Of a stretch of 64,000 bases of DNA, positions 1-49,396 are shown piece after piece; within the stretch, counting starts at the first letter, position 1; the number at the start of each line of letters is the position of its first letter. Where the stretch lies: the NCBI GenBank assembly GCA_017400305.1, contig JAFPTK010000003.1:2724-66723 (forward strand), in the 5' to 3' direction. The notes beneath the pieces were generated by a model. The model did no database searches. It was given only the letters and a program-made list of their open reading frames with translations, and was not told where the DNA came from. The translations under genes were made by a program, and so were the position numbers. The stretch comes from Lachnospiraceae bacterium. GTDB lineage: Bacteria; Bacillota; Clostridia; Lachnospirales; Lachnospiraceae.

Positions 1-2223
1 CCAGAGCATCTCCCGGGTATCGGGATCGGGCTTCTGGAATTCGACGATATACTTCATCCGTCGGAAGAAGGCCGGATCGATATTGTGCTTGTAGTTGGTG
101 GCCAGGACCGATACGCCGTCATAGCCCTCCACCTCCTGCAGGAGCAGCGCGGTCTTGTTGTTGTTGGAGGCCTGGTTGGAGCCGCCGTCGTCCGCGCGCT
201 TGGCAAAGAGCGTGTCGCACTCGTCAAAGAACAGGACGACGTTGCACTTCTTGGCCTCCCGGAAGATCATCGAGATCGACTTCTCCGTCTCACCGACGTA
301 TTTATCGATGACCTTGGACAGATCCACGCGGTAGAGCTCCAGATTGAGCTCATGGGCGATGACCTGCGCGCACATGGATTTTCCGGTACCGGGCGCGCCG
401 AAGAGCAGCACCGAGAGGCCGCGCCCGTAGGGGTATTTCTTGGTGTAGTGCCATCCCTCGTAGACGTCCTTGCGATAAGTCATCTGATCGATCGCCCGCT
501 CGATGGCCGTGCGCTGGTCCACGCTCATGACGATATCCTCAAAGCCGAAGTTGGCCTTGATCTTGGTCGCCTTTTGGGTGAGCTCCGAGCTCATCTGATC
601 GTAGCAGCCCTTGAAGAGCTTCTCTCGGGTGACGACCTCCTCCTTGTCCATGATCGCGAGCTTCTTGGCCTGCGCCAGGGCCGCCTTGATCTTGCCCGGG
701 GTGAAGAGGAACTTCGTGGCCATCTCCAGCAGATCCACCTCCTCCGTGAGATCGTAGCCCTGTGAGAAATGATGCCAGCAGATCTCACGGGAGCCGTTGT
801 CCGGCGTCAGGATCTCCAGATCCGTGAAGTCCTCTCTTGTGATGTCGCGCATCGCGAGCTGAAGCTTGCTGAGGGCGAAGACCGTCACCTTTTTCTGGGT
901 GAGCTTCCCGAAGGCGAGATCCATATAACCGTAGAATTTTTCCTTCTCATCCTCACGGAATTCCAGTTCCTCCAGCACGCAGCAGGCGTTGGTCAGCAGG
1001 CACTCCCTCGTCACGGCCCAGAGGGCTTTTTCTACAAACTGGAAATCGTAGACAAAGAGCTTCTTGCAGTTTAAGGAGATCGCCTGCTGCCCGCGCTCCC
1101 TGCAGAAGAGCTTGATGAAAAACTTCCGTCCGCTGCCCTCGTCGCCCCAGAGGGCAAAGATCCGCGAGCCCTCGCGGTAGGAGATCTTCATCGCTTCCAG
1201 CTGTCCTTCGTTCGCAAGGATCGGATCGAGCTCCGCGTTGTCCGTGAGCATCTTGATGAAGCGGCTGTAATTCTCGTCCAGTTTCTCCGGATGTCTGCCG
1301 AAGAGGAAATCGATGATCCGCTTGTCCGGGGACACCGCGGTGGAGAAGGGCATGCTCGGCGACACGTGCAGATCCAGGACCGGCAGGAGCTGCTCTAAAC
1401 ACGTGGACATATCGCCGTAGGCGCCGGTGATGGAATAGTCCTCTCCGAAGTAGAGCTTCGCGGCGGATTCGATGGTCGGCGACGAGAGGGATCCGTTCTC
1501 GTTGACGATCTGGAAGATCCCCGCGTAATCGGTCTGCGTGGAGGACAGGATGCCGCAGGCGAAGCAGAATAAGGTAAAGGGCTCAAACTCCATGCGCCTC
1601 GCAAGATCATGGAAGGGCATGCGGGTCCCGGCCTGCATCGCCGCCTCCGCGCGGGCCTCGATGGACAGGATCCTCTCGGGGAGACTCCCCGATCCGGCAC
1701 CCGTCCGGCCTTCCTCCGGAAGCGCCTCCTCACCGCCAAGGAAATCCGACATCGCATCCATGAGCTCGCTGTCCCGCTCGTCCTGCGTCTCCGGTTCCTC
1801 CTCCCCGTCGTCGTCCGGCACGGCGAACGCGCCGAAGAGGTCGAGGAGTTCGGATTCGTCAAAGGCGTCCTCCTCTTCTCCTTCGCTCTCTGCCCCGGCA
1901 GCCTGAGGCGTCCCGCCCCCCTGCTGTCTCACATGCTCGCGATAGCGCGCGATCTGCTCTCTGGCAGCGTCGCTCGCAATCCCCAGATCGGGGTAGAGCA
2001 CGTTCTTGTAACCGCCCTGCCCGTTGTCATACACGCTCTTCATGTGCTCTAAATACTGATCCAGAGAGCGGTTTACGCAGTCGAAGATCTCGCGCATGTA
2101 GTCGTCGTAGGTGGCAAAGGGCACGATATCCGGTTCCGGCGTCTTCGGTTCCGCAGCCGCGGACTCCGCAACCACGGGCTCCGGGATCGTCTGTTCTGTC
2201 TGGTCCTTTTTCTTTCTGGGCAT
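1..2223 (-). CDS. CIS AAA+ ATPase (Afp15/Pvc15-like), 3' end runs off the left edge of the window
   Basis: Not in the ORF track because it has no stop in the window. Segments translated by hand from ATG 2223 (RBS AAGGAG) are all in one frame: Walker A GAPGTGKS (~373-396), LELYRVDLSKVIDKYVGETEK, Walker B VLFFDECD, acidic N-terminal linker. Last visible gene of the CIS operon. Confidence 0.92.
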   Translation of the reverse strand, partial: MPRKKKDQTEQTIPEPVVAESAAAEPKTPEPDIVPFATYDDYMREIFDCVNRSLDQYLEHMKSVYDNGQGGYKNVLYPDLGIASDAAREQIARYREHVRQQGGGTPQAAGAESEGEEEDAFDESELLDLFGAFAVPDDDGEEEPETQDERDSELMDAMSDFLGGEEALPEEGRTGAGSGSLPERILSIEARAEAAMQAGTRMPFHDLARRMEFEPFTLFCFACGILSSTQTDYAGIFQIVNENGSLSSPTIESAAKLYFGEDYSITGAYGDMSTCLEQLLPVLDLHVSPSMPFSTAVSPDKRIIDFLFGRHPEKLDENYSRFIKMLTDNAELDPILANEGQLEAMKISYREGSRIFALWGDEGSGRKFFIKLFCRERGQQAISLNCKKLFVYDFQFVEKALWAVTRECLLTNACCVLEELEFREDEKEKFYGYMDLAFGKLTQKKVTVFALSKLQLAMRDITREDFTDLEILTPDNGSREICWHHFSQGYDLTEEVDLLEMATKFLFTPGKIKAALAQAKKLAIMDKEEVVTREKLFKGCYDQMSSELTQKATKIKANFGFEDIVMSVDQRTAIERAIDQMTYRKDVYEGWHYTKKYPYGRGLSVLLFGAPGTGKSMCAQVIAHELNLELYRVDLSKVIDKYVGETEKSISMIFREAKKCNVVLFFDECDTLFAKRADDGGSNQASNNNKTALLLQEVEGYDGVSVLATNYKHNIDPAFFRRMKYIVEFQKPDPDTREMLW

Positions 2224-2234
2224 CGTATCTCTCC

Positions 2235-3707
2235 TTACGGGCGAAGCGGCGGACTGGTCAGATGATCGTTGCGCCGTTGATAGTCATTCATGGAATTGCC
2301 GGAGATATCCTCGTAGAGGATCTTCGTCGTATTGCCGGAGACATCGTATCCGGTCAGATCACCGACCTGCGCATCGGGGTCCTTTACGATCTCGATGGAA
2401 TTGCCGGAGATATCGTTCTTGAACCGGAACCTGCCGCGGATATCCTCGGTGCTGTAGGCAGCCTGCACGTAGACACCCGTATTCTCCTTATTGTCATCCT
2501 GTTCGCCGTTTAAGAATCCGCGGAGCTTCTGGATCTTGGCTGCGATCTGATCGGTCATCCGCTGGATCATGGACCTGGAAGGTGCCTCTCCGGGTTCCGT
2601 CGTAACCGCCGGCTGTACGTTCTGCACGGTATTCCCCGGGGTCGCTTCCGCCGCGGTGTAGGCCTTTGCCACGGTTCTGGATTCCGTCTGCACGCCCTGT
2701 GCCGCACTCTCCTGCGATCCGGCCGAGGTCCTCGTCCCGGTGCTCCTGCCGGTCACGGCGGCCGCTGTGGTCCTCGTCCCGATGCTGCTTCCGGTCGCGG
2801 CGGCCACTGTGGTCCTCGTCCCGGTGCTGCCTCCGGCCGCGGCGGCGCTCTTCTGATCCTGCATGCTGCTCTGCGCCGCTCCCTGCGCCGCAGGAGCCTG
2901 GCTGCTGCCCGTGGCGGCGGATCCCGTCGTCACGCTGCTCCCGGTACCGGCCGTGGCGGCAGATCCCGCGGCGGCGCTGTCATCGGTGCTTCCCGTCCCG
3001 GATCCGTCGGCGTCGTCGGATACGGTATCCTGAGAAGCCGCCTCCGCAGAGTTTCCGGACACATCATTGGCTGAGACGTCCTCGATCCGCTGTCCGTTCT
3101 CATCAAAGCCCTCCGGCATCTCGGTGCCCTCTTCCACCAGCTCCGGCACCTCGATCTTCAGATAGTCCACGGGGACCTCCTCCGGCGGGATCTCCTCAAA
3201 GGCCAGATATCCGTTGAAGGCGTAGCCGATCTTCACACCGTCCTTCGTCTCCGCCGCGATATAGGACCAGTTCTTCCCGCGATAGACCACATACCCCGGC
3301 GTCCCCGGCGGCATCTTGTACAGGATCGTCGCTAAGAGGTTCGGGGCCTCTCTGAGCCGCAGGATGGTGATCCTGTTGGTCGTCTGCAGCAGGTAGAAAT
3401 GCCGGTCCGTGACATCGACCCCCTCGATGATCACCCGTTCCGGTTCCGCCGTCTCCGTCTCTGTCACCGCCTCTGCTGCGGTCTCCGCGGTCTCCTGATC
3501 CGCAAGTTCTCCGAGATCGCTGTAGATCAGGTCGCCCTCTGCTGCCACACCCGTCACCAGATCGATCTGATAATCCGTCTCCTGTTCGATGGGATCGGGT
3601 CTGCTCTCCCGGGAAGAGAGGCGCGTATTCAATTCCATTCCCGCCAACAGCCCTGCCGCCAGATAAAAGGCAGCAACGGCGGGTAGTATGATCTGATACT
3701 TCTTCAT
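2235..3707 (-). CDS. Exported or membrane-anchored SH3b-domain protein with a low-complexity Ala/Gly/Ser/Thr linker
   Basis: Hydrophobic N-terminus; SH3b-like LRLREAPN...WSYI...IGYAFNGYL; repeat-rich stalk; four D(V/I)SGN motifs. Confidence 0.75.
   Translation of the reverse strand: MKKYQIILPAVAAFYLAAGLLAGMELNTRLSSRESRPDPIEQETDYQIDLVTGVAAEGDLIYSDLGELADQETAETAAEAVTETETAEPERVIIEGVDVTDRHFYLLQTTNRITILRLREAPNLLATILYKMPPGTPGYVVYRGKNWSYIAAETKDGVKIGYAFNGYLAFEEIPPEEVPVDYLKIEVPELVEEGTEMPEGFDENGQRIEDVSANDVSGNSAEAASQDTVSDDADGSGTGSTDDSAAAGSAATAGTGSSVTTGSAATGSSQAPAAQGAAQSSMQDQKSAAAAGGSTGTRTTVAAATGSSIGTRTTAAAVTGRSTGTRTSAGSQESAAQGVQTESRTVAKAYTAAEATPGNTVQNVQPAVTTEPGEAPSRSMIQRMTDQIAAKIQKLRGFLNGEQDDNKENTGVYVQAAYSTEDIRGRFRFKNDISGNSIEIVKDPDAQVGDLTGYDVSGNTTKILYEDISGNSMNDYQRRNDHLTSPPLRP
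2727..2848. repeat. 42-bp coding tandem repeat, about 3 imperfect copies (14-aa STGTRTTxAAxTG unit)
   Basis: GGTCCTCGTCCC recurs at 2727, 2769 and 2811. Confidence 0.85.
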
Positions 3708-3729: not shown

Positions 3730-4614
3730 TTAAGTCGTCGGCATCTGGATGTAGATGCCCATTCCGTTCCCCGGCATGGACTTGGCGTAGATCGTACCGC
3801 CGTAGTACTCCACGATCGCTCTCGCCTGTGCCAGTCCCAGTCCGTTGCCGCTGATCCGGTTGCTGCCCTGATAGTTCAGTTCGAAGATGTGGCTGGTCTC
3901 ATCCGGCGGCAGTCCCTCTCCGTTGTCCTTGCAGACGACGAACAGATCGTCCTCGATATGGGAGATCGTGACCACCAGGGAGCCGTGCCGTTTCATATAC
4001 TTGATCGAGTTGTCGTAGATGTTTAGGAACAGCGTGCGCAGCATCGCCGGATCGGCCTTGACGAGGAAGGCGTCCTCGCTCGAGGAGACCCGGATCACGA
4101 CCCCCGCCTCCGTGGCGGCTTCCTTGAGCTGCTTTGCCACCTCATTCGCGATCCCGATGATATTGACCGTCCGCTTCTTCTCCCTCTCGTCGGGATGGAT
4201 CGGCAGGATCGCCGTCTTCTCCGAGAAGGTCTTGCTCTGTTCCTCCTGCTCGGCGACGATCCGTTTTAAGGAGGCGATCTCTCCCTCCAGCATGTTGTTC
4301 TCCTGCAGGGTGATGAGCTTCTCCTTCTCCACGGCTTCCAGTGCCCGCTTCGTGGTCGAGAGCTCCTCATTCACCGCATCCACCGCCTGCTTCTTGTCCG
4401 TCTCCGCGAACTTCAAGTCCTCCTCCAGACGCTCGATCTCGGCGAGGGGCTCCTCCTGGGCCTTCAGGCACACGAAGCACCCGGCGATCGCCAGGATACT
4501 GTGCAGGATGAAGAAGAACAGCCAGGCCGCCAGATCCAGCCGGATGAAGAATAACAGCGTCAGCGCATAGCAGACTGCCGCGGATAACAGCAATCCGATC
4601 TGTAGTTTTCTCAT
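3730..4614 (-). CDS. Membrane protein with coiled coil and histidine-kinase-type HATPase_c domain, no recognisable H-box
   Basis: 2 N-terminal TM helices; N-box NIYDNSIKY, G1 DNGEG, G2 GNGLGLA; no HExRTPL-like motif. Confidence 0.8.
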   Translation of the reverse strand: MRKLQIGLLLSAAVCYALTLLFFIRLDLAAWLFFFILHSILAIAGCFVCLKAQEEPLAEIERLEEDLKFAETDKKQAVDAVNEELSTTKRALEAVEKEKLITLQENNMLEGEIASLKRIVAEQEEQSKTFSEKTAILPIHPDEREKKRTVNIIGIANEVAKQLKEAATEAGVVIRVSSSEDAFLVKADPAMLRTLFLNIYDNSIKYMKRHGSLVVTISHIEDDLFVVCKDNGEGLPPDETSHIFELNYQGSNRISGNGLGLAQARAIVEYYGGTIYAKSMPGNGMGIYIQMPTT

Positions 4615-4633: not shown

Positions 4634-4933
4634 TCAGATGAAGGTCAGGATCCCGGAAAATCCTGTCATGGACAGCACCTGCATGATCGGGGCCTGCACA
4701 TTCATCATCTTCATCGTCCCGTTCTTGCTCATGGCGGTCTTCTGCCCCAGCATCAGCGCGCGAAGCCCCGCGCTGGACAGATAGTTCACACCGCCGAAGT
4801 CCAGTATGACATGTTTGGCCTGCTGGAAGCAGGACAGGATCTTCGCCTGCAGCTCCGGCGCCGTATTGATGTCTACCGAGCCCTCCACTGCCAGTTGGAT
4901 CGTATCACCGTTTACTGTTTCCTGGATCGTCAT
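4634..4933 (-). CDS. STAS-domain anti-sigma factor antagonist (SpoIIAA/RsbV-like), 99 aa
   Basis: ATG 4933 with AAGGAGG RBS (track start 5059 is too long); motif DFGGVNYLSSAGLRAL with the phosphorylatable Ser. Confidence 0.92.
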   Translation of the reverse strand: MTIQETVNGDTIQLAVEGSVDINTAPELQAKILSCFQQAKHVILDFGGVNYLSSAGLRALMLGQKTAMSKNGTMKMMNVQAPIMQVLSMTGFSGILTFI

Positions 4934-4964: not shown

Positions 4965-5228
4965 TCATCCCAATACCACACCGCCGTCGTATGACTGTCT
5001 CGCATCCAGTTCCCCCGGAGTCGGCTCCGCCACCTGAGCGTTGATATCCAGATAGACATTGCCGTCCAGCGTATCGCCCTCCGACAGCTGCAGCAGATGG
5101 ATCCGGCTGCGTGCCGGGCGGAACTGATCGATGAGGTGCATGAGCTGCGAGCGGTCCGTCTCCGTGAGGGGCTTCCGCACCAGGATATTCACGTCATAGA
5201 TGCTCTCCCCGATCAGTTTCATCCCCAT
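4965..5228 (-). CDS. C-terminal part of baseplate wedge/phage tail protein I-like gene (frameshift-separated from 5219-6067)
   Basis: Continues the upstream ORF in the -1 frame; LIDQFRPARS resembles the xxPAH end of tail protein I/P2_I-type domains. Confidence 0.6.
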   Translation of the reverse strand: MGMKLIGESIYDVNILVRKPLTETDRSQLMHLIDQFRPARSRIHLLQLSEGDTLDGNVYLDINAQVAEPTPGELDARQSYDGGVVLG

Positions 5229-6067
5229 GGTCTCCCCCGCTCCTCATAGGACCGGATGGTGTTCTGCTCGATGATGAGCGGCTTCTCGTTCAATACGATG
5301 GACAAAAGCCGCTCGATGCAGGCGCGGGTTCCCTTGATGCGGTTTAACTGATAGGCCTCCCGGACCAGCATCCGCTCCGTCTCCTCCGCGAGGTATCCGC
5401 CGCTTAAGTCGATCCCCATCCAGGAGGCGTAGACCGGCAGGAGCGATGCCGGGCAGGTGTCGATGTCGAGCAGCTCCGGCAGCACATCGATCTGCTCCTC
5501 CATGTCATTGTAGATGGAATTGTAGATCGCGAGAAACCGGTGAAAGAAATCGCCGCTCCTCCGATAGACATCGGGGAACGCGTCCTCCCAGGTATCGGCC
5601 TTGCGATACAGCTTCAGCCGGGACAGCATCCCCTCCCCCGTTCCGGTCACGTCGATGGAGAGATACAGGATCCGTCCCTTCAGTCCGTGCAGCAGCAGGT
5701 CGGAGCGCCCGACAAAGCGCTTTCCGTGATACCGCTCACAGAGCTCCTTCTTCCGCTCGTCCGGCACGGTCTCATCCACGAGGAATTCGTCGATGGATAC
5801 GGGCGTCGGGTCATCCGCCGGGACGAACACCGGTTCATTGACGGCGAAGGCGTAGACGTAGAGCACCATCTCCTCCGGAATAGCGGACTGAAAGCAGAAC
5901 CGTCCCCAGTCCGCATCGTCCTCCGCGCTGTCGATCCCGCGGAGATAGATCCGGTGGATCCCCGTGTCCGCGGCGAGACGGATCCGCTCGTTATCATCCA
6001 GCTCCCCGCCGATGATCAATGCCTGCCGCAGTCGGTTTTTCTTGATGGTATAGGTGATACCGGGCAT
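5219..6067 (-). CDS. Baseplate wedge/phage tail protein I-like (P2 gpI-type), N-terminal part
   Basis: FPDVYRR...FFHRFLAIY...LDIDTCPASLLPVYASWMG...RIKGTRACIERLL; follows the baseplate J genes. Confidence 0.8.
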   Translation of the reverse strand: MPGITYTIKKNRLRQALIIGGELDDNERIRLAADTGIHRIYLRGIDSAEDDADWGRFCFQSAIPEEMVLYVYAFAVNEPVFVPADDPTPVSIDEFLVDETVPDERKKELCERYHGKRFVGRSDLLLHGLKGRILYLSIDVTGTGEGMLSRLKLYRKADTWEDAFPDVYRRSGDFFHRFLAIYNSIYNDMEEQIDVLPELLDIDTCPASLLPVYASWMGIDLSGGYLAEETERMLVREAYQLNRIKGTRACIERLLSIVLNEKPLIIEQNTIRSYEERGRPWG

Positions 6068-6076
6068 GTCTTCTCC

Positions 6077-8218
6077 TTATCTCTGCTCGTATGCGATCTC
6101 TTCGATCACGATCTCCCCCGGGTAGAGGAGGCAGTTTTTGTCCGGGAGGATATCCGCGTCCTGCATCCTCACAAAGGTCGCCGTCTGCGGCCTGAGGGAC
6201 AGTTCGTAGACGAATTCCACACAGGGGAGCATCTCCACGGCATGGAAGATATCGTCGAATTTAAGCAGCTCCCCGAAGCCCTTATCCGACCGGAGATAAT
6301 CCGTCTTTTCCCGGATCAGGGCTTCGATCTGGGCGCGGGCGTTCTCGTAGTGCGGCTTCACGTAGATCCTGGCGGTCACGTTGACGGAGGCATACATCGG
6401 CTGTAAGATCTCCACCCGCGTCGACAGAAGCCTGCGCCTCTCCAACTCCTTAAGGATCGTCTTCTCATAGATGGGCGACAGCTTCGGAAACCGCTCGTCC
6501 GTGGCGGGCTTTACCGCAATCTGTATGAGATTGCGCTCCGCGTCCATGGAGGCGCCGACCTTGTGGATGCAGAGTCCGGGCGTTCGCTGCACGATCCGCT
6601 GGTAATCCGCTTCCGTCACCGCCGTGTACGGGGTCTCGATATCCTTAAGGAACCGCTGCCGCACGGATTCCAGGCGCTCGCGGTAGGCTCCTCCCATGCC
6701 GGCTCCCGGCGCGTAGTACCGGATGCCGCTCCGGTCATGATCCGAGACGAGGGTATTGCCGGCGCGGATGTTGCCCTCCGAGCCGCGCATCGTACTGCAG
6801 GCCGCCAGGAACAGCTGGGCACCGATGAAGGCACCGGCGTCCTCGATGACGATGGTCCCGTCATTTTCCAGCAGATGATAGGTCAGGGCTTCGTCCTCAT
6901 ACCGGTCCGGACGGACGAAGTCATAGATCGCTTCCCCGTTCGCCGCCGTCCGCTTCGCCAGGATGCAGAAGCTCTCATTCACCAGATGCTTATAGGGCAG
7001 CTCGATCACCTGATCGTCATAGCCCAGGACCTTCCCCAGGGCGTATCGTCTGGCCACATCCTCCGTGTAGACGAGGACCTCCACACAGCCGCGGCCGGAG
7101 AGCGGCGCGAACCCGTAGCGCGACCGGTCGAAGCGGATGCTGTGCCGGCCGTTTCCCAGATCCTTCCGCTCGTAATACCTGCCCTGCTTCTCGCCCCCCT
7201 CGGTGATCTCGTAGCGGCGGTAGCTTCCGCCCTTCTCCTCCCGCACAAAGACATCGATGTAGGCCTCGCGGGAGATCTCGCTCTCCAGCTCCACCTCCTG
7301 CGCCTTGTGAAAGGTGTGCACCTCGGAGAGGGTGTCCTTCTGCCAGACCTCGAAGAGGAAGCCCCAGATCGCCGTCACGCGCGGCCGCACATCGTAATCG
7401 GCGCGGGTGAGCACTGCGCGGATACAGTATCCCTCCGGGATCCCGGCCGCGTCCTTATCCTGCCACAGGGCGGCACTCTCCTCCGGGAGTCTGAGCCGCA
7501 CCTCCCCGCTGGTGAGGAAGGCATTGGTGCAGTCCCGCACCTTGAGCGGCACGAATCCCTGATCGGTGTACAGCTCCCAGCTGATGGCCGCAAAGGTATT
7601 TTCTACATGCTCCGGCAGCGGGTTTCTCCCGCCCCGCTCCCGCAGACTGAAATAAAAGATCACCTCCCGGCGAGACTCCGGCAGCCGGTTCAGGATCAGA
7701 TACAGCGCGTCCTGCGCCTGCGGCTGCTCCCCGAAGATCTCCACGGGCACCGCGGTCTCGTGGTCTAAGAGCGGCGCGCAGTCGCGGATGATCACCTTCT
7801 TTTCATGGGTCTTGCGGTCCTCGGTCTCCCGTCTGCTGTACGCCGCCGTCACCCGGCTGTCATCCACCGCGATCCGGCGGTTGGTCTCAAAGGTCAGGGG
7901 ACCCAGCCGGAACTTGTGATTCTGCGGCAGCATCACGGGGGCCTTCACGCCCTCGGCGCACAGGAGGAGTCTGGCAGGTCTTCCCTTGCGGATCTCGAAT
8001 CCCACTAACTTCATCAGATTCTGACGTACCCGGAAGGGGATCTGCAGAAGTCTCTCCTGCTGCAGCGTCTCGAAGCCGATCATGTTCTCCAGGATGGTGA
8101 TGCCCGGATCCGCCGCGTTGAAATTGGTCCAGTCCTTCGTGTAGAGCGGGATCTGTGTCAGGGCTTCCTGATAGCGCTCCTCATAGGATTTACTTTCGGT
8201 TTCCGTGTATTCCAGCAT
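6077..8218 (-). CDS. CIS baseplate J-like wedge protein (Afp11/12-type)
   Basis: WTNFNAADPGITILE N-terminus; GxEGNI...AVTEADY baseplate J core. Confidence 0.9.
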   Translation of the reverse strand: MLEYTETESKSYEERYQEALTQIPLYTKDWTNFNAADPGITILENMIGFETLQQERLLQIPFRVRQNLMKLVGFEIRKGRPARLLLCAEGVKAPVMLPQNHKFRLGPLTFETNRRIAVDDSRVTAAYSRRETEDRKTHEKKVIIRDCAPLLDHETAVPVEIFGEQPQAQDALYLILNRLPESRREVIFYFSLRERGGRNPLPEHVENTFAAISWELYTDQGFVPLKVRDCTNAFLTSGEVRLRLPEESAALWQDKDAAGIPEGYCIRAVLTRADYDVRPRVTAIWGFLFEVWQKDTLSEVHTFHKAQEVELESEISREAYIDVFVREEKGGSYRRYEITEGGEKQGRYYERKDLGNGRHSIRFDRSRYGFAPLSGRGCVEVLVYTEDVARRYALGKVLGYDDQVIELPYKHLVNESFCILAKRTAANGEAIYDFVRPDRYEDEALTYHLLENDGTIVIEDAGAFIGAQLFLAACSTMRGSEGNIRAGNTLVSDHDRSGIRYYAPGAGMGGAYRERLESVRQRFLKDIETPYTAVTEADYQRIVQRTPGLCIHKVGASMDAERNLIQIAVKPATDERFPKLSPIYEKTILKELERRRLLSTRVEILQPMYASVNVTARIYVKPHYENARAQIEALIREKTDYLRSDKGFGELLKFDDIFHAVEMLPCVEFVYELSLRPQTATFVRMQDADILPDKNCLLYPGEIVIEEIAYEQR

Positions 8219-8230: not shown

Positions 8231-11200
8231 TCACATCTGATCCATCACCGTCACGGTGTACTCCCCGCCCCTGCAGAGCATGCAGGGCGTCACTCTGACA
8301 TCGTCCAGATCCATCTCATGGGTCCCGGTATCGTCCGTATAGCGGGCGATCATCACCGAACGCCTAACGATCGCCTTGGATTTGAGGGAGGAGAGGCGCA
8401 TGAGCAGCTGCGTCCTGCCGGGCAGTACGCCGATCCGCCAGCCTCTCCCGGTGCCGTATCCCAGGGGGTTCAAATAATCATCCAGGCAGGCGCGCATCTC
8501 GTCCCGGATCTCAAAGCTGTGATCGATATCCAGCACCTTGACCCAGACGCTGACCGAGATCTCCACGAAGATCGGCTCCACGATCTTAAGACGCTCCGGA
8601 AGGATCGTGAGCTCGCACTGCTTTAACAGGTACTGCCGGAGTCCTCCCACGATCCGGTGGAAGGCGTAGGAGCCGTCCGCGTAATCCTTCATCAGGAGGA
8701 CAAAGGTCACCTCGTCCTCCGCGTTCCCCGTGGCGGTCCCCTCCACGAGGCCTGCCACCTGGTCGATCGTATCGGAATAGGCCATCACGGCGCGGCAGTA
8801 ATCTCTGATCGTCACCAGTCTCCCCCGGCTGGACAGGATGCTGGCACCCCGCTCCAGTGCGGAATCGACCGATTCGATGTTGCTGCCGCCGTATGCCTTG
8901 ACCGGATTGGAGACCCGGTCGATATACAGGAAATTCCCGGTCAGCGAATTGATCGTCTCCGCCGGCACATTTCCCGCTTCCCCGTTGCAGCAGCGGACCA
9001 TAATGGTGAAGGCGGTGTCGTCCAGCACCCGCGGGAGCCAGGTCTTCACGCCGTCGCCGAAGACGATCTGTCCCGTCATCCGATCCAGCCGATAGCTGCG
9101 GGGATCCTCCGCGGTCTCCAGCCGGGATACCTCATGCCAGCGGACGTAGAAGGCCGAGATCGCGCCAGTGATATCATACTCCGCCCGGGTGTCATCCGGC
9201 CGGTCTGCCAGCATGGCCTTCATCTGTTCTCTCGGCCAGCGCCCCATCTCGTTCACCCAGACATCCGCATCGAGGATATTGAAGACGCCGATGGCAAACC
9301 GCATCCCCGGCCGGATCTCCTCCACGTAGAAGGACTGCGTCGGCCGGGTGTCGATATTGGACACCTGCACCGCGTTCAGGTCGATCCCCATGATCCGGGG
9401 CAATCCCTTGTCCGCATCGGCGCGCGGGCTTCCCGGGGCACGCCTGACACGGATCCAGCAGAGTCTCTTCCCCTCCTGCACCGTACGGGCCATATCCGAG
9501 GGCGGCAGGAACATCACCACGCCGGAGCGGGTGAAATCCCTGGTGTGATCCAGCACCTTGAGAGGCTCAAAGCCCTCGCGGCTCGCGTACTCGAATACAC
9601 ACGGCACCTCCGCGGACCGCGCGCCGTCTTCGATCCGGAACAGGATGCTGATGGGTCCCGCGGTCATCCGGTCGGAAAAGCCCAGATAGAGGGCGTCCTC
9701 CTGGTAAGCCCCGGGCTCAAACAGGGAAAAGCCCTTTCCCGCCTTCATGAGGGTGGTCAGATCCCGGCGGTTCGTGCCGAAGACGCCCTCCATCCGGAGC
9801 GGATCCACGTAGCTCTCCTCGTAGCTGTAGGAGATGCTCAGCCCGTCGATCACCGGATAGTGGTGGATCGCGGGACGATAGTAGCAGTTGTCGGCCCGGA
9901 GGATCTGGAGCCTGAGGCACCTTCCCTCATACGCCCCCGCGGCGATCTGTTCCCAGTCATCCGGGCAACGGAAGCGGATCTCCAGTTCCCTCACTTCCGG
10001 CCTGGCAAAGAGCATGGTCTCCCCGGAGAATTCGGGGATGCGCTTCCAGCCCGTCCCGTTGTAATACTCGATCATGACCTCATCGGCGCAGCACTCCGCC
10101 GGAGAGTCCGTCTTTTCCGCCCGGGGTTTGCGCTTGATCACCTTTAAGCTGTTGTCGATGGTCTCCTGCGAGACGCCGATGGGATGCTCCCCGTAGGAGA
10201 TCCGGAAGCGCAGCGTGATCTCCGATCCCGCCATCCGGAAATAGTCGTCGTGCCCGATGAAGCACTCCTGGAACAGGGAAAGGGTGTCCCCAAAGGGCTG
10301 GAAGTGACCGACCTCGCAGTCTCTGCGGCCGTCGCTCACATGCTGCGCCGGGGTGGCATCGCCGTGGGAAGCGAACCGCACGCTCTCCACCGGAACGGTC
10401 TGATGCACCGGCTCCGTCGCCGTCAGGAGCAGGGCACGGCAGCTCTTCTCACCGATCCGGTATCGCGCCGCCTCCCCGGGGATCGTGATGGACAGGATGC
10501 GGATCTCCGGATCCCCGTCCTCCGTGATCTCCTCACAGGATGACACCGGGATCAGCGCATCGTCCCGATCGCAGATTTCGAACCGATATCTGCCGGCCAG
10601 GATGTCATCGGCGAGCCTCCCGCCGCCCGCGATCCGCACATGGACGCTCTCTCCCGCGCCGTCGAAGACCGCATCGTGGTAAAAGACCACCGCGTACTGC
10701 TCGATCCCCTCCTTCTCACCGAAGAGTCTGAACGGCCGGATCTGCGGCGTCTCTTCCTCCTCTGAGATCGCTTCCTCCGGGATCACCGTTTCGATGATCT
10801 CCTCCTCCGATTCCTCCCTGGGATACGCCACCGGCGGCACCTTGACGAAATCGCCCAGGATGGGTGCGATCACGCCGGTCTCCCCGTCGGTCATGTAGGC
10901 AGCCGACAGCTCCACCCCCGTCACGTAGATCGAGTGATCCGCCTCAAAGACGATGGGCTCTGTGTCCGTCTCGGCGAGCAGACGGGTCCCCTTGGGGATA
11001 TCCGTCCCGGGCACCCCGACGTCCGCGAGGTTGAACACCACGATGCTGCTCGCCGGTCTGGCGGGCAGGAGCGAGATGTCGAGCATGTTGACAAATTCCG
11101 TATGATAGCGGTCAACGACATCCCCCATCCGGTCAATATTCTCCTTCATCAGACCGGAGAAGATCCGCGCCAGGGCATATCCGATATCGGGATTCTCCTC

Positions 11201-11311: not shown

Positions 11312-11744
11312 AAACTTCCTCCTCCGTTTCGGTGTTTTCCGGTTCTCCCTGCAGATAGAACGGGAAGACGAAATTATCCCGCACGTTGCTGTTCCTCACG
11401 GTGTAATCGATGCGGAACAGGAGCATGCCGCTGCCGCCCTCCTCCGCGGAGATCTCCACGGAACCCACGCGCGGCTCCTGCATCAGGATCTGTTCCTTCA
11501 GTGTGCGGATCGCCATATTGAGCACCGTGTGATTCATCTCCATAAAGGTGAACCCCATCAGATTGGTCCCGAATTCCGGCCGCATGGGACGCTCGGTCAG
11601 CTGTGTCATGAGGATCAGCCATACCGCCTGTCTCACACTCTCCCTTCCGGAGACAGTCTGCAGCCGCCCCGTCGCACGGTCGATGGCGGGAGGGAACTGC
11701 ATCCCCGTTCCGAGGAATTCCAGTTCGTTGTCTGTCTCCTGCAT
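11277..11744 (-). CDS. gp25/GPW-like sheath initiator (Afp9/Pvc9-type)
   Basis: FLGTGMQFPP...ILMTQLTERPMRPEFG...EPRV...NFVFPFYL. Confidence 0.93.
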   Translation of the reverse strand: MQETDNELEFLGTGMQFPPAIDRATGRLQTVSGRESVRQAVWLILMTQLTERPMRPEFGTNLMGFTFMEMNHTVLNMAIRTLKEQILMQEPRVGSVEISAEEGGSGMLLFRIDYTVRNSNVRDNFVFPFYLQGEPENTETEEEVFEPESLEETDD

Positions 11745-18260: not shown

Positions 18261-18292
18261 CCCGTCTCTCCTGTACCGTCAGTGCAGCGGCT

Positions 18293-18517: not shown

Positions 18518-18523
18518 AAATTT
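18475..18523 (-). other. Putative -1 programmed ribosomal frameshift signal: slippery heptamer A_AAU_UUU plus downstream stem or pseudoknot
   Basis: AAATTTT at 18523-18517 is in X_XXY_YYZ register with the chaperone frame; 9 nt downstream lie GGATA/TATCC and TAGAGCT/AGCTCTA complementary segments. Confidence 0.72.
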
Positions 18524-21725: not shown

Positions 21726-21737
21726 ACTCCAACCTCC

Positions 21738-29153: not shown

Positions 29154-29157
29154 CGAT

Positions 29158-44986: not shown

Positions 44987-47601
44987 CAGAACATCTTGAT
45001 CAGACGCACGACGTTCTCATTGCCGATATAGTCGTAGGTCACCTGATCCATCATACGCATCACCATAAAGATCCCCAGTCCGCCTTCCGTCCGCTCTTCG
45101 ATGGGCGCGTCGATGTCAGGCCGCTCCTGCTTGGTCGGATCGAACGGTGTCCCGCGGTCCGCGATGGTCAGGATGGCTCTCCGGTTCTCCGTGCACTCCA
45201 CCGCGATCCGGACATCTCCCTTTTCTCTTCGATACGCGAACTTGACCACATTGACAAACAGCTCCTCCGTCGCCAGGATAATCTGCGTCAGGATCAGTTC
45301 CGGGACGTTGTGGCGCTCCAGGAACGGTGTCATCCACACGCGGATCTCCTCGAAGGTCGCCGACTGCGCGGGGAAGAGCCGCTCCACCTTGCGATCATCA
45401 CGGGAGACATAGTATTCACGGAATTCCACCTCCAGCATCGTGATATCGTCAAACTGGTCCGCCTCTCCCCGGAAGGCCGCGATCTCCTCGCCGATCTTCT
45501 CGACGCGCTCCCTGACCTCCAGGTTTCCGCACTGCTTCATCCACGCAAGGAGCCTGTCCTCGCCGACAAATTCCTCCTGTTCATTCTTGGCTTCCGTCAC
45601 GCCGTCCGTGTAGAGATAGAGGCGGTCTCCCAGAGAGATCCGGACCTCTTCCTCGCGGTAGAACAGATCGTCCATCCATCCCATGACCAGCTGGGGTTCG
45701 CTCTCCGACAGGTATTCCGGATCGCCACCCCTCCGGGTGAGGACCGGGGGATTATGTCCCGCATTGACGTAGATCAGCTGGCCGGTCTCCGTATCCAGCA
45801 TGCCGAGCCAGACGGTGACGAAGAGGTTCACCTCGTTGTTGTCGCACAGAGACCGGTTGGCGTTGGTCATGGCTTTGCCCGGGGAGCGTGTGATCGTCAG
45901 CTGCTCCTGGATCAGTGTCTTGGAAATGACCATGAACAGTGCCGCCGGCACCCCTTTCCCGGACACGTCACCGATCACGAAGGCGATGTGACTGTCATCC
46001 ACCAGGAAGAAGTCGTAGAAATCTCCTCCCACCTCCTTGGCCGGATGCATCGTCGCATAGAGCTCCACATCCTTCCGGTCGGGGAACAGATTGAAGATCG
46101 AGGGCAGCATCCCCTCCTGGATCTGCGTCGCCACCGAGAGCTCGGCGCCGATCTTCTCCTTTTCCACCGTCATATTCTGGATCTCGCTCATGGAGTCTGC
46201 GATGTTGATCTCCATGTCGCGCATGGTATTCCACAGACCCTCGATCTCATCGCCGGTCTTGATCTTCAGATCGCCGAAGAAGGTCTGATTCTGATCCAGT
46301 CGGGTCTCTTCGCGCTCGATGAATCGCACACCAGCCTGCTGCAGCTTCTTGATCGGCCGTACGATCTGATTCGCCGTGATCAGAGACAGGGCGACCGCAA
46401 GGAGGATCAGGACCACGGTGACGATCAGCGTCACCTGGTACATCGTCTGTGCCCCCCTCATCGACCGGTCAACGGAGTGCGCATAGACTTCATCCGCCTG
46501 CCGGATCATCTCATCCGCCGGCGCATCCTGGACGCTCTTCGCCACACCGATGAACTCAGTCCATCCGACGGTCTTAAGGGGTGCATAGGCCAGGTAGATC
46601 GGTTCGTCATCGACCATGATCTCCGTAAACCCGCTTTCGCCCTTCAGGGCGTCCTCCACCACCATGACCAGATCCATGTTGGTGCTCTCCATCAGGTTGT
46701 TGACGACGTCCTCGCCCACACTGAGCTCGCCGCTCTCCTTCTGGGAGAAGATGACGTAACCGTTCTGGTTGACCAGACAGGTGAAGCCCTCATTTCCGAA
46801 GGAGGCATTGTCGATGATGCTTTCGATATTGTCCAGACTGATCGAGCCGCCGCAGACAGCCAGCAGCTCATCATTCACATAGACCGGGATCCCGATCATC
46901 ATCTGACTCTTCTTCGTGTAATAGTCCCGGTTGACGGGGGAGAAGTACACATCGCCGGTAGCCACGGCACCGGCATACCAGGGCCGCCGCAGGGCATCAA
47001 AGGTCATGACGTTTCCGTCCTTATCAAATTTCTCGGCGGCGATCCGGTCCGCGACGATGCTCATTCCCTCCGGCAGGGCGATGATGCAGTCCTGCAGGAT
47101 CCCGCTTCCGTCCACGATCTCCCTCATGATCGGGCCGACATTTCCCAACTTCCCGATCTTTTCCATGGTTTCCGTATCATCTTCTCTGGCGTATCGCGAA
47201 TACAGAAGATGCACGGTCGTGGTGGAACCGGCGTACTTGTTGGGCGGATATACCTTCACGGCGGTGAAACGCTCCGGATTCTCCAGTACCTCTCCCACCT
47301 CCCGGGAGAGCAGCTCCATGTCATGCATCATGGTCCAGAATTCCCTGTCCGCCAGGGACGCGGACGAATCCGCCATCTTCTGGAAGCTCTCCTTGAGCGT
47401 CTGACGGGTCATGTCCGGCATCGTCTCCTTGATCAACTGCTCCTGCTCATCCATGGTATCGTCCATGAGACGGACGAAATTGGAGAACTCCGCATTCCCG
47501 ATGAGAGCAAATACGACGATGGACGAGATCACCAGGAACGCGCTGATGGCGAAAAGCTTCAGTCGCAGGCCTCCGGTTCGGTTTACACTTGTTTTTTTCA
47601 T
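44986..47601 (-). CDS. Membrane sensor: Cache, HAMP, PP2C/SpoIIE phosphatase and anti-sigma-type HATPase domains
   Basis: RPWYAGA (Cache); EVGGDFYDFF, IGDVSGKG, NAGHNPP, LYTDGVTEA, DDITML; EELFVNVVKFAY, DRGTPFDP, GGLGIFMV. Confidence 0.93.
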   Translation of the reverse strand: MKKTSVNRTGGLRLKLFAISAFLVISSIVVFALIGNAEFSNFVRLMDDTMDEQEQLIKETMPDMTRQTLKESFQKMADSSASLADREFWTMMHDMELLSREVGEVLENPERFTAVKVYPPNKYAGSTTTVHLLYSRYAREDDTETMEKIGKLGNVGPIMREIVDGSGILQDCIIALPEGMSIVADRIAAEKFDKDGNVMTFDALRRPWYAGAVATGDVYFSPVNRDYYTKKSQMMIGIPVYVNDELLAVCGGSISLDNIESIIDNASFGNEGFTCLVNQNGYVIFSQKESGELSVGEDVVNNLMESTNMDLVMVVEDALKGESGFTEIMVDDEPIYLAYAPLKTVGWTEFIGVAKSVQDAPADEMIRQADEVYAHSVDRSMRGAQTMYQVTLIVTVVLILLAVALSLITANQIVRPIKKLQQAGVRFIEREETRLDQNQTFFGDLKIKTGDEIEGLWNTMRDMEINIADSMSEIQNMTVEKEKIGAELSVATQIQEGMLPSIFNLFPDRKDVELYATMHPAKEVGGDFYDFFLVDDSHIAFVIGDVSGKGVPAALFMVISKTLIQEQLTITRSPGKAMTNANRSLCDNNEVNLFVTVWLGMLDTETGQLIYVNAGHNPPVLTRRGGDPEYLSESEPQLVMGWMDDLFYREEEVRISLGDRLYLYTDGVTEAKNEQEEFVGEDRLLAWMKQCGNLEVRERVEKIGEEIAAFRGEADQFDDITMLEVEFREYYVSRDDRKVERLFPAQSATFEEIRVWMTPFLERHNVPELILTQIILATEELFVNVVKFAYRREKGDVRIAVECTENRRAILTIADRGTPFDPTKQERPDIDAPIEERTEGGLGIFMVMRMMDQVTYDYIGNENVVRLIKMF

Positions 47602-47623
47602 GCTTTCTGCCTTTCGGGCGAGG

Positions 47624-49327
47624 TCATTTTAATACGACATCCTTGTAGATGATACTGTGCCAGCCGGCCCAATACGGGGTGAAGGACGAGACCCGCTCTC
47701 CGATCACATAATCGTGGTAGCAGGAATACAACGGTACCCAGACCGCCTCGTCCTGAAACAGTTTCTTTTCGATCGCCGCGTACTCGGCGAGGCGTTTCTC
47801 CTCCTGCACGATGGAACGGGCATCCACCACGCGCTGAAACAGGCTCTCGTCTCCGTAATTGACGGAACGGTAGACGGAATTCTCCCTGGATCCGAAAAAG
47901 GTGTAGAGGAAATTATCCGGATCATTGTCATCCGCGACCCATCGGGCGAGATAACACATGATCAGCCCGCGCTTCCTGAGATAGTTTCTGGGTGATTCAT
48001 CATAGTTGACGATCGATACACGGATCCCGATCTCTTCCAGATCCTGGCTGATCATGTGCAGCACGGTCTTATCTGCCACGCTCTCCTCCACGTTGGCTGC
48101 GACCTCCAGGCTGAAGCCGTCCGCGTATCCGGCGTCTGCCAGTAACTTCTTCGCCTGTTCCGGATCGTACTGAAGCCACCCCTGGTTGTCCTTCGTGTAG
48201 CCGATCAGTCCCTTGGGGAATATCCCGTCCATGATCGTCCCGCCCCCGCCATAGACGGTCTTTAAGATCTTCTCCCGATCGATCGCCATCTGGATGGCTT
48301 TGCGCACCTTGACATTATCGAGCGGTTCAAATTCGTTGTTGAGGATCAGGCAGCGCAGCTCCACGTTGCTCTTTCTCACGATGCGGTTCCGGTATCTGCC
48401 GCGGGCGTAATCCTTTTCCAGGAGCTTCCGATTGATGAGCTGCCCGTCCAGGATGTCCAGCTCTCTGTTCTGAAATGCGCGATGCATCATGACAGGGGGG
48501 ATGACCCGCGCCTCCACCTCTTTGGCTGAGGGGGCCTCGCCCCAGTAATAGGGATTTGCGACAAACCGCATGAAATCCGGTCTCCATTCCGTCACGATGT
48601 ACGGGCCGGAGCCGATCGAATACGCCGGGTCGGTGCCGAAGGCATCTCCCCCCTCGCGTACGCTCTTCTCACATAAGATACTGCAGGACGGGGTCGCCAA
48701 CTGCGGCAGATATCCCGCAAACGGGGCTTTTAACGTGATCTCGATCTGTGTGTCATTGATGACCCGGATGCCCTCCGGTGTCTCAACCTCCCCGCTCATG
48801 ACGGCTTCCGCACCCAGGATCGCATCGGCGAAGTCCGTCTGACTGCTCTCCGGCTGCAGCATCCTGCTGAAGGAAAAGGCCACATCCCGGGCGGTCAGCT
48901 TCGAGCCGTCCGAGAACAGCACATCATCCCGCAGTGTAAAATGATAGGTCCTGCCATCCTCCGACAGGGAATATTCCTTCACCAGACTGGGGATCAACTC
49001 CGTGGAGCCGTCCAGATTCTGCTGCACCTCAAAGAGGCGGTCATAGACATTGAGCGGGACCGCATAATCGCCGCTGGTCCGATCGATATCCATGGTCTCC
49101 TGCTCCTCGTCCACAGCGATCCGCAACAGTCCCTCGGCCGGAGCCGACGTGTCCTGTTTCTCCGCCGGGACTTCCGTTTGGGATCCGATCTCCCCGGCCT
49201 CTGCCCCTGCGGCTCCGGTGTCACCGGCACCACCTGCTCCCATCGGCTGTCCCGCGCCGCAGCCGGTCAGCATCACGGCGACGCCCAGCGCCGCCAGCCG
49301 CATCAGGCGCTTGCTTAACTGTCTCAT
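47624..49327 (-). CDS. ABC peptide/nickel-type solute-binding lipoprotein (family 5), orphan
   Basis: Lipobox LTGC; YHFTLRDDVLFSDG, IGSGPY, VRKAIQMAIDRE; no permease or ATPase genes adjacent. Confidence 0.92.
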   Translation of the reverse strand: MRQLSKRLMRLAALGVAVMLTGCGAGQPMGAGGAGDTGAAGAEAGEIGSQTEVPAEKQDTSAPAEGLLRIAVDEEQETMDIDRTSGDYAVPLNVYDRLFEVQQNLDGSTELIPSLVKEYSLSEDGRTYHFTLRDDVLFSDGSKLTARDVAFSFSRMLQPESSQTDFADAILGAEAVMSGEVETPEGIRVINDTQIEITLKAPFAGYLPQLATPSCSILCEKSVREGGDAFGTDPAYSIGSGPYIVTEWRPDFMRFVANPYYWGEAPSAKEVEARVIPPVMMHRAFQNRELDILDGQLINRKLLEKDYARGRYRNRIVRKSNVELRCLILNNEFEPLDNVKVRKAIQMAIDREKILKTVYGGGGTIMDGIFPKGLIGYTKDNQGWLQYDPEQAKKLLADAGYADGFSLEVAANVEESVADKTVLHMISQDLEEIGIRVSIVNYDESPRNYLRKRGLIMCYLARWVADDNDPDNFLYTFFGSRENSVYRSVNYGDESLFQRVVDARSIVQEEKRLAEYAAIEKKLFQDEAVWVPLYSCYHDYVIGERVSSFTPYWAGWHSIIYKDVVLK

Positions 49328-49362
49328 CCATGTACCTCCGATCGATACACTGCACCATGATC

Positions 49363-49396
49363 ATTTTAGGGGTTGGATAGTGACATTAGCATGACA
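49363..49396 (-). promoter_or_regulatory. Promoter of the SBP-PP2C-calpain-regulator operon: box TGTCATGCTAATGTCA plus -10 TAAAAT
   Basis: TGTCA at 49396-49392 and 49385-49381, 12 nt to the -10 at 49368-49363. Confidence 0.75.

Follow-up and report, generated by a model that had tools for sequence, protein, structure and literature searches.

A conserved envelope gene module in the operon of a contractile injection system from monoderm Lachnospiraceae

How contractile injection acts through a Gram-positive envelope is the question raised by the locus described here, which lies in a 64,000-nt stretch (hereafter the window; positions 2,724 to 66,723 of contig JAFPTK010000003.1, assembly GCA_017400305.1) of a Lachnospiraceae metagenome-assembled genome (MAG) and combines the core genes of a contractile injection system (CIS) with a module of envelope genes. 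To our knowledge, the sole CIS so far studied in a Gram-positive bacterium, that of Streptomyces, brings about the death of the cell that makes it, and injection on contact has been described only in diderm bacteria and haloarchaea. The CIS core of the locus is of an ordinary, already catalogued kind; what is new is the conserved envelope module in monoderm hosts, of which we found no description in the papers searched on contractile injection in Lachnospiraceae, Clostridia or monoderm bacteria. The module is widespread, being found in abundant gut and rumen Lachnospiraceae, and a CIS docked at the cell envelope would be a mode of action of which Gram-positive bacteria as yet offer no demonstrated example.

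The envelope module and its conservation

Our observations concern gene content, folds, synteny and co-occurrence, and are based on Pfam scans of 36 minus-strand open reading frames (ORFs) and the flanking genes, with additional use of PHROGs and NCBIfam. The module is a block of seven genes directly upstream of the CIS core, in the same tightly packed unit and between the operon head and the cap gene. All genes from 38865 to 1 are on the minus strand, as are all features of the locus given below, and are separated by gaps of -47 to +67 nt, except for the 132 and 241 nt that flank a tail assembly chaperone gene; between the fibre and cap genes, where the envelope genes lie, the gaps are -47 to +16 nt. 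An earlier reading of the DNA, made from the sequence only, had counted six envelope genes packaged with the CIS. The block was confirmed, and its number is seven here because one gene, that of an exported giant, has been duplicated.

The operon is headed by the gene of a 636-aa fibre-like or receptor-binding-protein (RBP)-like baseplate protein (36955..38832). Its AlphaFold2 (AF2) model consists of an N-terminal helix, an eBAP3/TssK-like shoulder, a string of beta-sandwiches and a C-terminal Big_2 immunoglobulin (Ig) domain. Residues 40-351 align with the RBP of lactococcal phage 1358 (VIA Z 10.4), that is, with the phage-RBP shoulder fold, residues 519-608 align with Big_2 (VIA Z 11.3), and the N-terminus weakly resembles Cis19, the crown protein of the thylakoid-anchored CIS (tCIS; 7b5h_AA, E 0.009). 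Foldseek searches with the whole model gave low-TM multi-domain matches, and the domain-level reading rests on VIA; TssK was absent among the 50 Foldseek matches listed, so that the link of the fibre to TssK rests on the literature. A fibre catalogue of 2026 (PMC12923769) describes the eBAP3 fibres of Bacillota and Actinobacteriota as having a shoulder-like N-terminal baseplate anchor of ~200 aa and a gene that follows that of Tail_P2_I in ~90% of the loci, and relates eBAP3 to TssK and Tail_P2_I to TssG. With its shoulder-like N-terminus and a Tail_P2_I gene in the locus, the 636-aa protein is an eBAP3 fibre by fold and locus rather than by the hidden Markov model of those authors. However, its gene is not in the usual eBAP3 position: it lies 31 kb upstream of Tail_P2_I and, judging from the gene order, has been moved from the place after Tail_P2_I to the operon head, beside the pseudokinase gene. 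Across genera, the distal C-terminal domains of the fibre are conserved at 69% and the baseplate end at 67-78%, as against 42% for the middle. That the distal end is as conserved as the baseplate end suggests a conserved partner rather than diverse foreign receptors.

The start of the next gene overlaps the fibre stop by 4 nt and encodes a tail-anchored pseudokinase of 280 aa (36116..36958; AF2 pLDDT 85), with a Hanks kinase fold in residues 1-213 and a transmembrane (TM) helix at about 229-257. The top 50 Foldseek matches listed were all kinases or kinase-homology domains with a probability of 1.00 (500 matches at E<=0.001), and structural alignment with kinases gave VIA Z scores of 11.8-13.8 over ~200 residues, covering the bilobal fold; a profile search of the PDB returned a single weak kinase match (E 0.007). 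Among 28 homologues there is no invariant Lys and no invariant Asp before residue 204. The protein is a pseudokinase since it lacks an invariant catalytic Lys, HRD Asp and DFG Asp. Prediction of a complex between fibre and pseudokinase gave run scores of 0.02, 0.37 and 0.00 (median 0.02), which speak neither for nor against a contact. A cytoplasmic pseudokinase domain followed by one TM helix is also the layout of EssB/YukC, an interaction hub of the type VIIb secretion system, a secretion machine of Firmicutes. The likeness considered here is one of layout, and EssB has a sizeable extracellular domain whereas only ~25 residues follow the helix here.

The third gene (33549..36101) encodes a membrane receptor with four TM helices and a HAMP/cyclase-like C-terminus. 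Its two outside regions are variable (20-24% identity), whereas the cytoplasmic C-terminus is conserved (29-47%). In the ESM Atlas it resembles Guanylate_cyc clusters (features 0.96-0.98, structure TM-score 0.75), but no PF00211 match was obtained at E<=10, although a genuine cyclase from this MAG reaches 82 bits, and neither hhalign against that cyclase nor a profile search of the PDB gave anything. The likeness to cyclases is therefore at the fold level only, and the receptor lacks the PF00211 match that, with a metal-binding Asp pair, marks class III adenylate/guanylate cyclases. It is followed by a protein that has MORN repeats, a basic N-terminus and a single TM helix at 69-87 (32306..33547; Pfam MORN), and by a secreted TolC-like protein of the OEP family (29158..32289; 1043 aa), composed of a core of ~680 aa and a C-terminal extension. 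The latter scores 34.7 bits against a Pfam OEP cut-off of 22, in two stretches, has profile matches to TolC chains in two repeat regions, which correspond to the two OEP repeats, and matches 'TolC family' clusters of Bacillota in the ESM Atlas. No ABC, RND or MFP gene adjoins it and Omp85 was found neither in the MAG nor in five near-complete relatives, which is not the setting of an outer-membrane factor. The block ends with the genes of two paralogous exported giants of 1096 and 930 aa with an N-terminal signal or anchor (23117..29204; TM/signal prediction), of which relatives have one copy of ~910 aa. These giants had no Pfam, NCBIfam or ESM Atlas match, and a homologue search and the ESM Atlas gave no usable relative or domain for the 930-aa one. 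None of the module proteins carries an LPxTG signal.

With the profile of the 636-aa fibre, at least 568 loci were detected among species-representative genomes; the species-locus counts given here refer to the best 80, with per-gene counts limited by the available flank. Within these 80, the pseudokinase is encoded in 77 and the receptor in 68; where enough flank was available, MORN (64/64), the TolC-like protein (64/64) and the exported giant (60/62) were found as well, and Pvc16 lies within 10 kb in 43. The order fibre, pseudokinase, receptor, MORN, TolC-like, exported giant, Pvc16 is the same in all seven close relatives, which belong to two families and have sheath identities of 65-75%, and is kept from fibre to Pvc16 in 60-77 of the 80 species loci. 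A sheath relative is present in 33 of the 401 genomes of the order, and the pseudokinase profile matches 10 of these 33, against 0 of the 368 genomes without a sheath. The pseudokinase gene directly follows the fibre gene in each of the 12 genomes checked, two of which are from other classes of the phylum. The pseudokinase family comprises 342 clusters at 50% identity, and its distant metagenomic members keep the order fibre, pseudokinase, HAMP receptor, MORN. Thus, two expectations of the sequence-only reading, namely that the CIS operon includes the exported and membrane genes and that these co-occur with the CIS core in relatives, are borne out by their conserved, co-oriented synteny in many species and by the 0/368 count. 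In more distant CIS loci of the order (sheath identity ~50%), the fibre gene is in its usual place after Tail_P2_I and MORN and receptor homologues are often nearby, while the pseudokinase, the TolC-like protein and the giant are absent. In one relative (G380), the fibre-like ORF (L046:14756-16723) contains three in-frame stops in an otherwise apparently intact locus, and may be a pseudogene or reflect an assembly error.

The best 80 fibre loci carry mostly Lachnospiraceae-type labels and come largely from rumen and gut MAGs; the labels include Lachnospiraceae, Butyrivibrio (sp. Su6, AE3009), XBB2008, AD3010, Acetatifactor, Hungatella and Eubacterium, besides a few 'bacterium' or 'Clostridiales', one Oscillospiraceae and one Moraxellaceae. 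The present MAG (2.53 Mb, 79% complete) has a G+C content of 57%, and its contig with the locus 59.5%; sequencing runs of bovine-gut and other gut metagenomes, from several studies, contain near-identical DNA, with no RNA run listed. No Omp85/BamA match was found in the 79%-complete MAG or in five locus-carrying relatives that are at least 99% complete, whereas control genomes match. The absence of Omp85 from five near-complete relatives indicates that the host is monoderm, and the labels and this absence together agree with the monoderm Firmicute that had been supposed from the sequence. A Spo0A_C match was absent from the 79%-complete MAG, which at this completeness carries no information. 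By placement the MAG shares a genus with Butyrivibrio sp. Su6 (G163), the locus of which has ~39-41% G+C; this points to a very broad genus or to an uncertain placement of the MAG.

Anchoring, release or self-directed firing

The sheath is nearest to those of two systems that are internal to the cell. In searches of the PDB it matched 9ezm with an E of 3e-103 and 8bky/8bl4 with 1e-93 to 1e-95, as against 1e-44 to 1e-51 for Afp, PVC, tCIS and AlgoCIS (Pvc2/Afp2 1e-46 to 1e-50). In both nearest systems a membrane protein is needed or correlated, namely Hbor_38620 (PMC11566945) and CisA (PMC12237407). The fact that the nearest sheaths are those of the membrane-anchored haloarchaeal CIS and the cytoplasmic Streptomyces CIS, and not those of Afp/PVC, makes an anchored mode plausible. 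The T6SS-like CIS of Halogeometricum borinquense (PMC11566945, 9EZM) shares with the present one a host with a single membrane, an eCIS-type core with a Cis11/12/13-type baseplate and an AAA ATPase, and a conserved membrane protein gene of its cluster correlates with the anchored mode (PMC11566945). Its putative anchor Hbor_38620 is one six-helix protein, whereas six protein families, secreted ones included, are found here; its host has an S-layer only, whereas the present host has a peptidoglycan wall, and the module here is known from genes alone. The CIS of Streptomyces coelicolor (CIS-Sc; 8BKY/9GTP) shares a Gram-positive host with ours and has the next-closest sheath and baseplate J. Firing of CIS-Sc needs CisA, a bitopic protein with an outside sensor-like domain that is encoded beside the baseplate genes, and its known role is self-inflicted cell death (PMC12237407). 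CIS-Sc has no fibre (PMC12237407), and CisA, one bitopic protein, is not related to any of the module proteins described here. In the tCIS of Anabaena (PMC8894136, 7B5H), fibre-type proteins have been repurposed for membrane attachment (Cis13 with a TM helix); there, the anchor helix is within the fibre and the target is the thylakoid, whereas the TM helix here is on the separate, adjoining pseudokinase gene.

We tentatively propose a cell-anchored, signal-triggered CIS that operates at the cytoplasmic membrane from within the cell, a reading to which we give somewhat less than an even chance; the envelope proteins probably position the machine at the cell envelope and set it off there. As judged from gene content, a lineage-II CIS of monoderm Clostridia would be assembled in the cytoplasm, and its 636-aa fibre, mounted on the baseplate, would bind the cell's own envelope module and not a foreign cell. 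The tail-anchored pseudokinase, the four-helix HAMP receptor and the MORN protein would form the membrane part of this module and the TolC-like and ~900-aa exported proteins would occupy the wall zone, such that the module holds the baseplate at the membrane and spans or loosens the thin Gram-positive wall. An outside signal, either contact or envelope damage, would be passed inward and cause sheath contraction, and the spike and tube, loaded by the AAA ATPase with variable giant cargo, would be driven outward into a neighbouring cell, as in a type VI secretion system (T6SS). In this strain, a partner switch made up of STAS, GHKL kinase and PP2C components may add post-translational control, and an OmpR-type regulator acting on a common promoter box may add transcriptional control. 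All physical contacts, the direction of firing and the trigger are what we infer in this model. Several features would argue for it: a full core that comes without head, packaging and lysis genes, and envelope genes that lie inside the operon; a fixed gene order and a pseudokinase that appears limited to sheath-positive genomes of the order; an RBP-shoulder fibre whose gene overlaps that of the pseudokinase and both ends of which are conserved, which suggests a conserved partner; a receptor that is variable outside and conserved inside; a monoderm host; and cargo-like ORFs beside the ATPase.

The likeness to a T6SS deserves consideration of its own. In the H1-T6SS of Pseudomonas aeruginosa, TssK-TssG is linked to TssJ-TssL-TssM, and a threonine-phosphorylation switch consists of PpkA/PppA/Fha1 and TagQRST. 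The locus described here also has an RBP-shoulder protein and a TssG-like Tail_P2_I, envelope proteins encoded with the machine, and a membrane protein with a Hanks kinase fold together with a PP2C phosphatase. It differs in that homologues of TssJ/L/M/A, ClpV and Fha and an outer membrane are absent, the kinase fold is catalytically dead and the phospho-switch is of the STAS/GHKL type. A functional T6SS equivalent in monoderm Clostridia, in which the TssK-like fibre is bound to pseudokinase, receptor and MORN protein, the TolC-like protein and the giants provide a wall passage or weak spot, and polymorphic giant effectors are fired on contact into gut or rumen microbes, seems to us rather unlikely, though worth stating.

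A number of points weigh against an anchored, contact-fired machine. The pseudokinase and HAMP receptor suit a pure control function as well as an anchor, and the localisation and secretion that the anchored model supposes are read from gene content. Two thirds of the sheath-positive genomes lack the pseudokinase, so the full module is not obligatory for a CIS. Among the scanned window ORFs there was no Pfam or NCBIfam match to TssJ/TssL/TssM, TssA or ClpV, and no toxin-immunity pair was recognised. The lumen of a TolC trimer is ~3.5 nm wide, which is too narrow for a CIS tube, and hence the protein could serve as a literal conduit only in a different oligomeric state. At its end the fibre carries a Big_2 Ig domain, whose fold is typically found in adhesins of phages and cell surfaces that attach to foreign cells, and the 2026 catalogue files Butyrivibrio loci as extracellular CIS (eCIS) with tail fibres (PMC12923769). 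The supplement of that catalogue lists Butyrivibrio and other Lachnospiraceae loci (also Hungatella and Eisenbergiella) under eBAP3 eCIS, in line with the earlier remark, made from the DNA, that similar loci may be found in eCIS catalogues; the word 'transmembrane' does not occur in its main text. A previous survey reported zero eCIS in 64 Butyrivibrio genomes and found MORN enriched at eCIS loci, where it was read as a eukaryote-like toxin domain (Geller et al. 2021).

In the alternative that survives best, the locus encodes a classical eCIS: particles with eBAP3 fibres would be made in the cytoplasm and released on lysis of some cells, the Big_2-tipped fibre would bind targets, and the module would control production or release, through sensing and wall opening, or protect the producer, without any anchoring. 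We consider this unlikely, though far from negligible. It would account for the Afp/PVC-type set with Pvc16 cap, AAA loader and adjoining cargo-like ORFs, for the adhesin-type Ig domains of the fibre, for the cataloguing of Butyrivibrio, Hungatella and Eisenbergiella loci as eCIS with eBAP3 fibres and for the sensor-like character of most module proteins. A GerE/LuxR-type regulator gene (49424..49696; Pfam GerE 2e-11) is beside the locus, and a GerE domain adjoins about a quarter of the catalogued eCIS loci (PMC8213781). The present fibre shares with those of eBAP3 eCIS a Tail_P2_I-based baseplate, the shoulder-type N-terminus and C3b/Big-like domains; however, the catalogued fibre is the receptor binder of released particles, whereas the gene here heads the operon beside membrane genes and is coupled to one of them. 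The distal end of the fibre is conserved across genera and not hypervariable, and the sheath is much nearer to two cell-internal systems than to Afp/PVC. Moreover, neither in nor next to the locus, here or in relatives, is there a holin, endolysin or other lysis gene, and the TolC-like protein and exported giants, which look structural and extracytoplasmic, have no role in known eCIS.

A Streptomyces-like intracellular CIS is an alternative that we regard as improbable. On envelope stress or a phage signal the module, as a functional analogue of CisA, would recruit cytoplasmic particles to the membrane, where they fire into the cell's own envelope, and the cell dies. The second-closest solved sheath and the baseplate J match are indeed from the Streptomyces CIS, which depends on a bitopic membrane protein that has a sensor-like domain outside and whose gene occupies the usual position of the fibre gene (PMC12237407). 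The receptor that is variable outside, the partner-switch stress module of the locus and the patchy distribution (33/401 genomes) are also consistent with such a suicidal role. On the other hand, the giant cargo candidates differ between close relatives, which fits antagonism better, a fibre/RBP-like protein is present here whereas CIS-Sc has none, no CisA homologue was seen, and inward firing would seem not to call for the TolC-like protein or the exported giants. Finally, it is very improbable, and close to refuted by synteny, that the envelope genes belong to something unrelated, for example a signalling or export system of its own, and merely adjoin the CIS, since, even though no module protein has a proven CIS function and TolC-like, MORN and HAMP folds are common outside CIS loci, the genes keep a fixed order inside the operon in dozens of species and the pseudokinase is found strictly in sheath-positive genomes.

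Should the anchored reading prove true, gut Firmicutes would have a weapon that is new to their ecology, and a thick wall would be crossed by an architecture of a new kind; otherwise, the module still represents a new means of controlling a CIS. At least four cultured strains, among them Butyrivibrio sp. Su6 and AE3009 and Lachnospiraceae XBB2008 and AD3010, carry the fibre-gene locus, the full module having been checked in Butyrivibrio sp. Su6 only, which makes the question directly testable.

Cargo candidates and control

The locus runs 2.7 kb to the left of the window, where it comprises the end of the ATPase gene and, directly after it, an 806-aa ORF (L151:3-2420, minus strand) that runs off the contig. 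This ORF has a polar N-terminus and is a candidate cargo; it had no match in Pfam, PHROGs or a sequence search of the PDB and no homologue in any fetched relative. A contig search with the full ATPase, which could have extended the left flank, has nothing on record. Beyond the ATPase, the relatives have giant ORFs of 1677 and 2487 aa, a second AAA ATPase and GNAT-like genes, and Butyrivibrio sp. Su6 has a GNAT-like gene, a transposase and an enolase. The ORFs that adjoin the ATPase are thus giant, different between relatives and without a signal peptide, and we infer from their position that these variable giants next to the loader ATPase are most plausibly exchangeable cargo aimed at other organisms. 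GNAT-like genes of ~280-295 aa are found beside giant ORFs and AAA ATPases at CIS loci of several genomes (window 44141-44986; L154:2530-3390; L156:6555-7442; and L152:14250-16957 on contig C238, with 349 and 553 aa); they may encode a cargo partner, a modifier or an immunity protein.

Two components of a partner switch lie within the CIS operon. One is a membrane GHKL (HATPase_c) kinase, presumably a STAS kinase (3730..4614; HATPase_c E 3e-20, TM 32-50), which has no HisKA match in Pfam and is matched in all seven close relatives, at varying positions and in full length only in G179, G163 and G354. The other is a STAS protein of the anti-anti-sigma type with the serine motif DFGGVNYLSSAGL (4634..4933; STAS E 1e-13), the gene of which, with its LSSAG serine, is at the same place in five of the seven. 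Together with a SpoIIE PP2C phosphatase (4e-48), these correspond to the components of an RsbV/RsbW/RsbU-type partner switch; no sigma factor gene or other defined output partner was found among the Pfam-scanned window ORFs.

The phosphatase belongs to a strain-specific unit (38931..49327; Pfam), which encodes an SBP_bac_5 lipoprotein-like protein, a dCache-SpoIIE(PP2C)-HATPase_c_2 sensor, a GNAT-like protein of 281 aa, a 251-aa protein, a 1186-aa giant with a calpain domain that is a candidate cargo, and an OmpR-type response regulator. The spacing of the genes predicts two transcription units, 38865->1 and 49327->38931. Of the single minus-strand run of ~49 kb in the sequence-only reading, the structural gene calls therefore stand and the run itself divides into two. 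Nor can the dedicated regulatory operon and the calpain-like candidate effector of that reading be taken as general features: the unit is absent from the seven closest relatives, and in the 80 loci the response regulator is found in 17, SpoIIE in nine and a calpain-like protein in four.

The two units have a promoter element in common. The box TGTCATGCTTCTGTCA (38897..38912) precedes the CIS operon, with a -10-like TATATT following 13-15 nt downstream, and a second copy, TGTCATGCTAATGTCA (49381..49396), precedes the sensor/cargo/regulator unit. Both units are thus preceded by the 16-nt box TGTCATGCTNNTGTCA and, 13-15 nt further downstream, by a -10-like hexamer, whereas 0 boxes would be expected there by chance, and the pattern TGTCA-N6-TGTCA has four occurrences in the whole MAG. 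Through this common box the strain-specific unit is, as far as the sequence can indicate, wired to the CIS operon in this genome. Conservation of the box across relatives was rejected, as TGTCA-N6-TGTCA was found in 0/74 upstream regions.

A third copy of TGTCATGCTNNTGTCA, at C238:20580, heads a minus-strand cluster (L152:1-20000) that encodes a 996-aa protein, two GNAT-like proteins, a 567-aa ORF, an AAA ATPase, a 704-aa ORF, a 7TM-SpoIIE phosphatase, a STAS protein, a 250-aa ORF and a HisKA histidine kinase. Its AAA ATPase is 37% identical to the C-terminus of the CIS ATPase. The cluster looks like a second member of the same putative regulon and perhaps constitutes a further cargo and loader set that also supplies the missing kinase for the response regulator. 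It was rejected as a second CIS locus of the MAG, since the AAA, SpoIIE, STAS and GNAT genes matched on C238 are accompanied by no structural genes. Contigs C9, C35, C83, C88, C117, C137, C238 and C243 carry at least eight more SpoIIE-type PP2C paralogues as well as several STAS genes, and partner-switching modules are unusually numerous in the MAG.

The core machine and its surroundings

The full CIS core occupies 1-23103; it was confirmed by Pfam, which reproduced every structural gene named from the sequence before. With the structural set, a Pvc16 cap, an AAA ATPase and no head or packaging genes, the locus has the gene set of the Afp/PVC type (eCIS superfamily). No match to a capsid, terminase, integrase, holin or endolysin was obtained among the scanned window ORFs or in the left flank, and the 2.7-kb left flank and the regions beyond the ATPase in relatives are likewise free of head, packaging and lysis genes, in agreement with what had been stated for the window itself.

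At the distal end of the operon, the Cis15/Pvc15-like AAA+ ATPase (1..2223; Pfam AAA E 9e-28) ends 273 nt to the left of the window and is 831 aa in full length (ORF L153:2451-4946), with 59-66% identity in five relatives and 55% over a partial stretch in a sixth. It is preceded by a poorly conserved membrane-anchored protein with a bacterial SH3 domain (2235..3707; TM 6-24), a possible wall binder whose SH3_3 match (E 7e-5) is under the Pfam cut-off and for which a sequence search of the PDB and PHROGs gave no match. Upstream of the partner-switch genes lies a small conserved ORF of 87 aa (4965..5228; 33-54% identity in six relatives), for which the library scans, PHROGs included, gave no family. 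The baseplate genes follow: a Tail_P2_I wedge protein, which is a Cis12/TssG-like adaptor (5219..6067; Pfam E 4e-11), two Cis11-like Baseplate_J proteins recognised by Pfam, of 713 aa (6077..8218) and 1026 aa (8231..11311), the larger of which matches the Streptomyces CIS baseplate chain 9gtp_1K (E 2e-11), and the gp25 sheath initiator (11277..11744; Pfam GPW_gp25 3e-17). The spike region comprises a VgrG-type OB spike (11797..12609; Pfam Phage_base_V 2e-18), a gpD hub (12627..13772; Pfam Phage_GPD 9e-8) and two CIS_tube proteins of ~300 aa of the tube initiator/adaptor type (13777..14679 and 14704..15600; Pfam CIS_tube 4e-13 and 4e-18).

Two further genes (15640..18260), assigned by position and conserved in relatives, encode a 691-aa protein that is probably the tape measure and a 181-aa tube-like protein with a weak PHROG tail tube match. 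The tail assembly chaperone of 120 aa (18502..18864, or 18263..18864 with the -1 frame; PHROG 508 E 6e-8) precedes them in the direction of transcription. The -1 frame past the chaperone (18263-18526, minus strand) is open for 77 further codons and reads ...LYPQQELYREMAFVSYYFHWSESEVLKMEHHERRRW...; it takes up most of the 241-nt gap and fits a programmed frameshift of the G/GT type. The remaining core genes are those of the gp19-type inner tube (18997..19521; Pfam 3e-32), the contractile sheath (19589..21310; Pfam), a DUF4280 PAAR-like tip (21339..21725; Pfam 2e-26), a 261-aa protein of no named family between this tip and the cap (within 21339..23103), and the Pvc16_N cap itself (22516..23103; Pfam 1e-27). 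The part of the window from 50337 to 64000 is ordinary and unrelated, and encodes a zinc-ribbon protein, a CheX/CheC-REC protein, an aldo-keto reductase with Fe-S domains, a FIST-GGDEF cyclase, a MatE transporter, an HD/APH protein and an MFS transporter.

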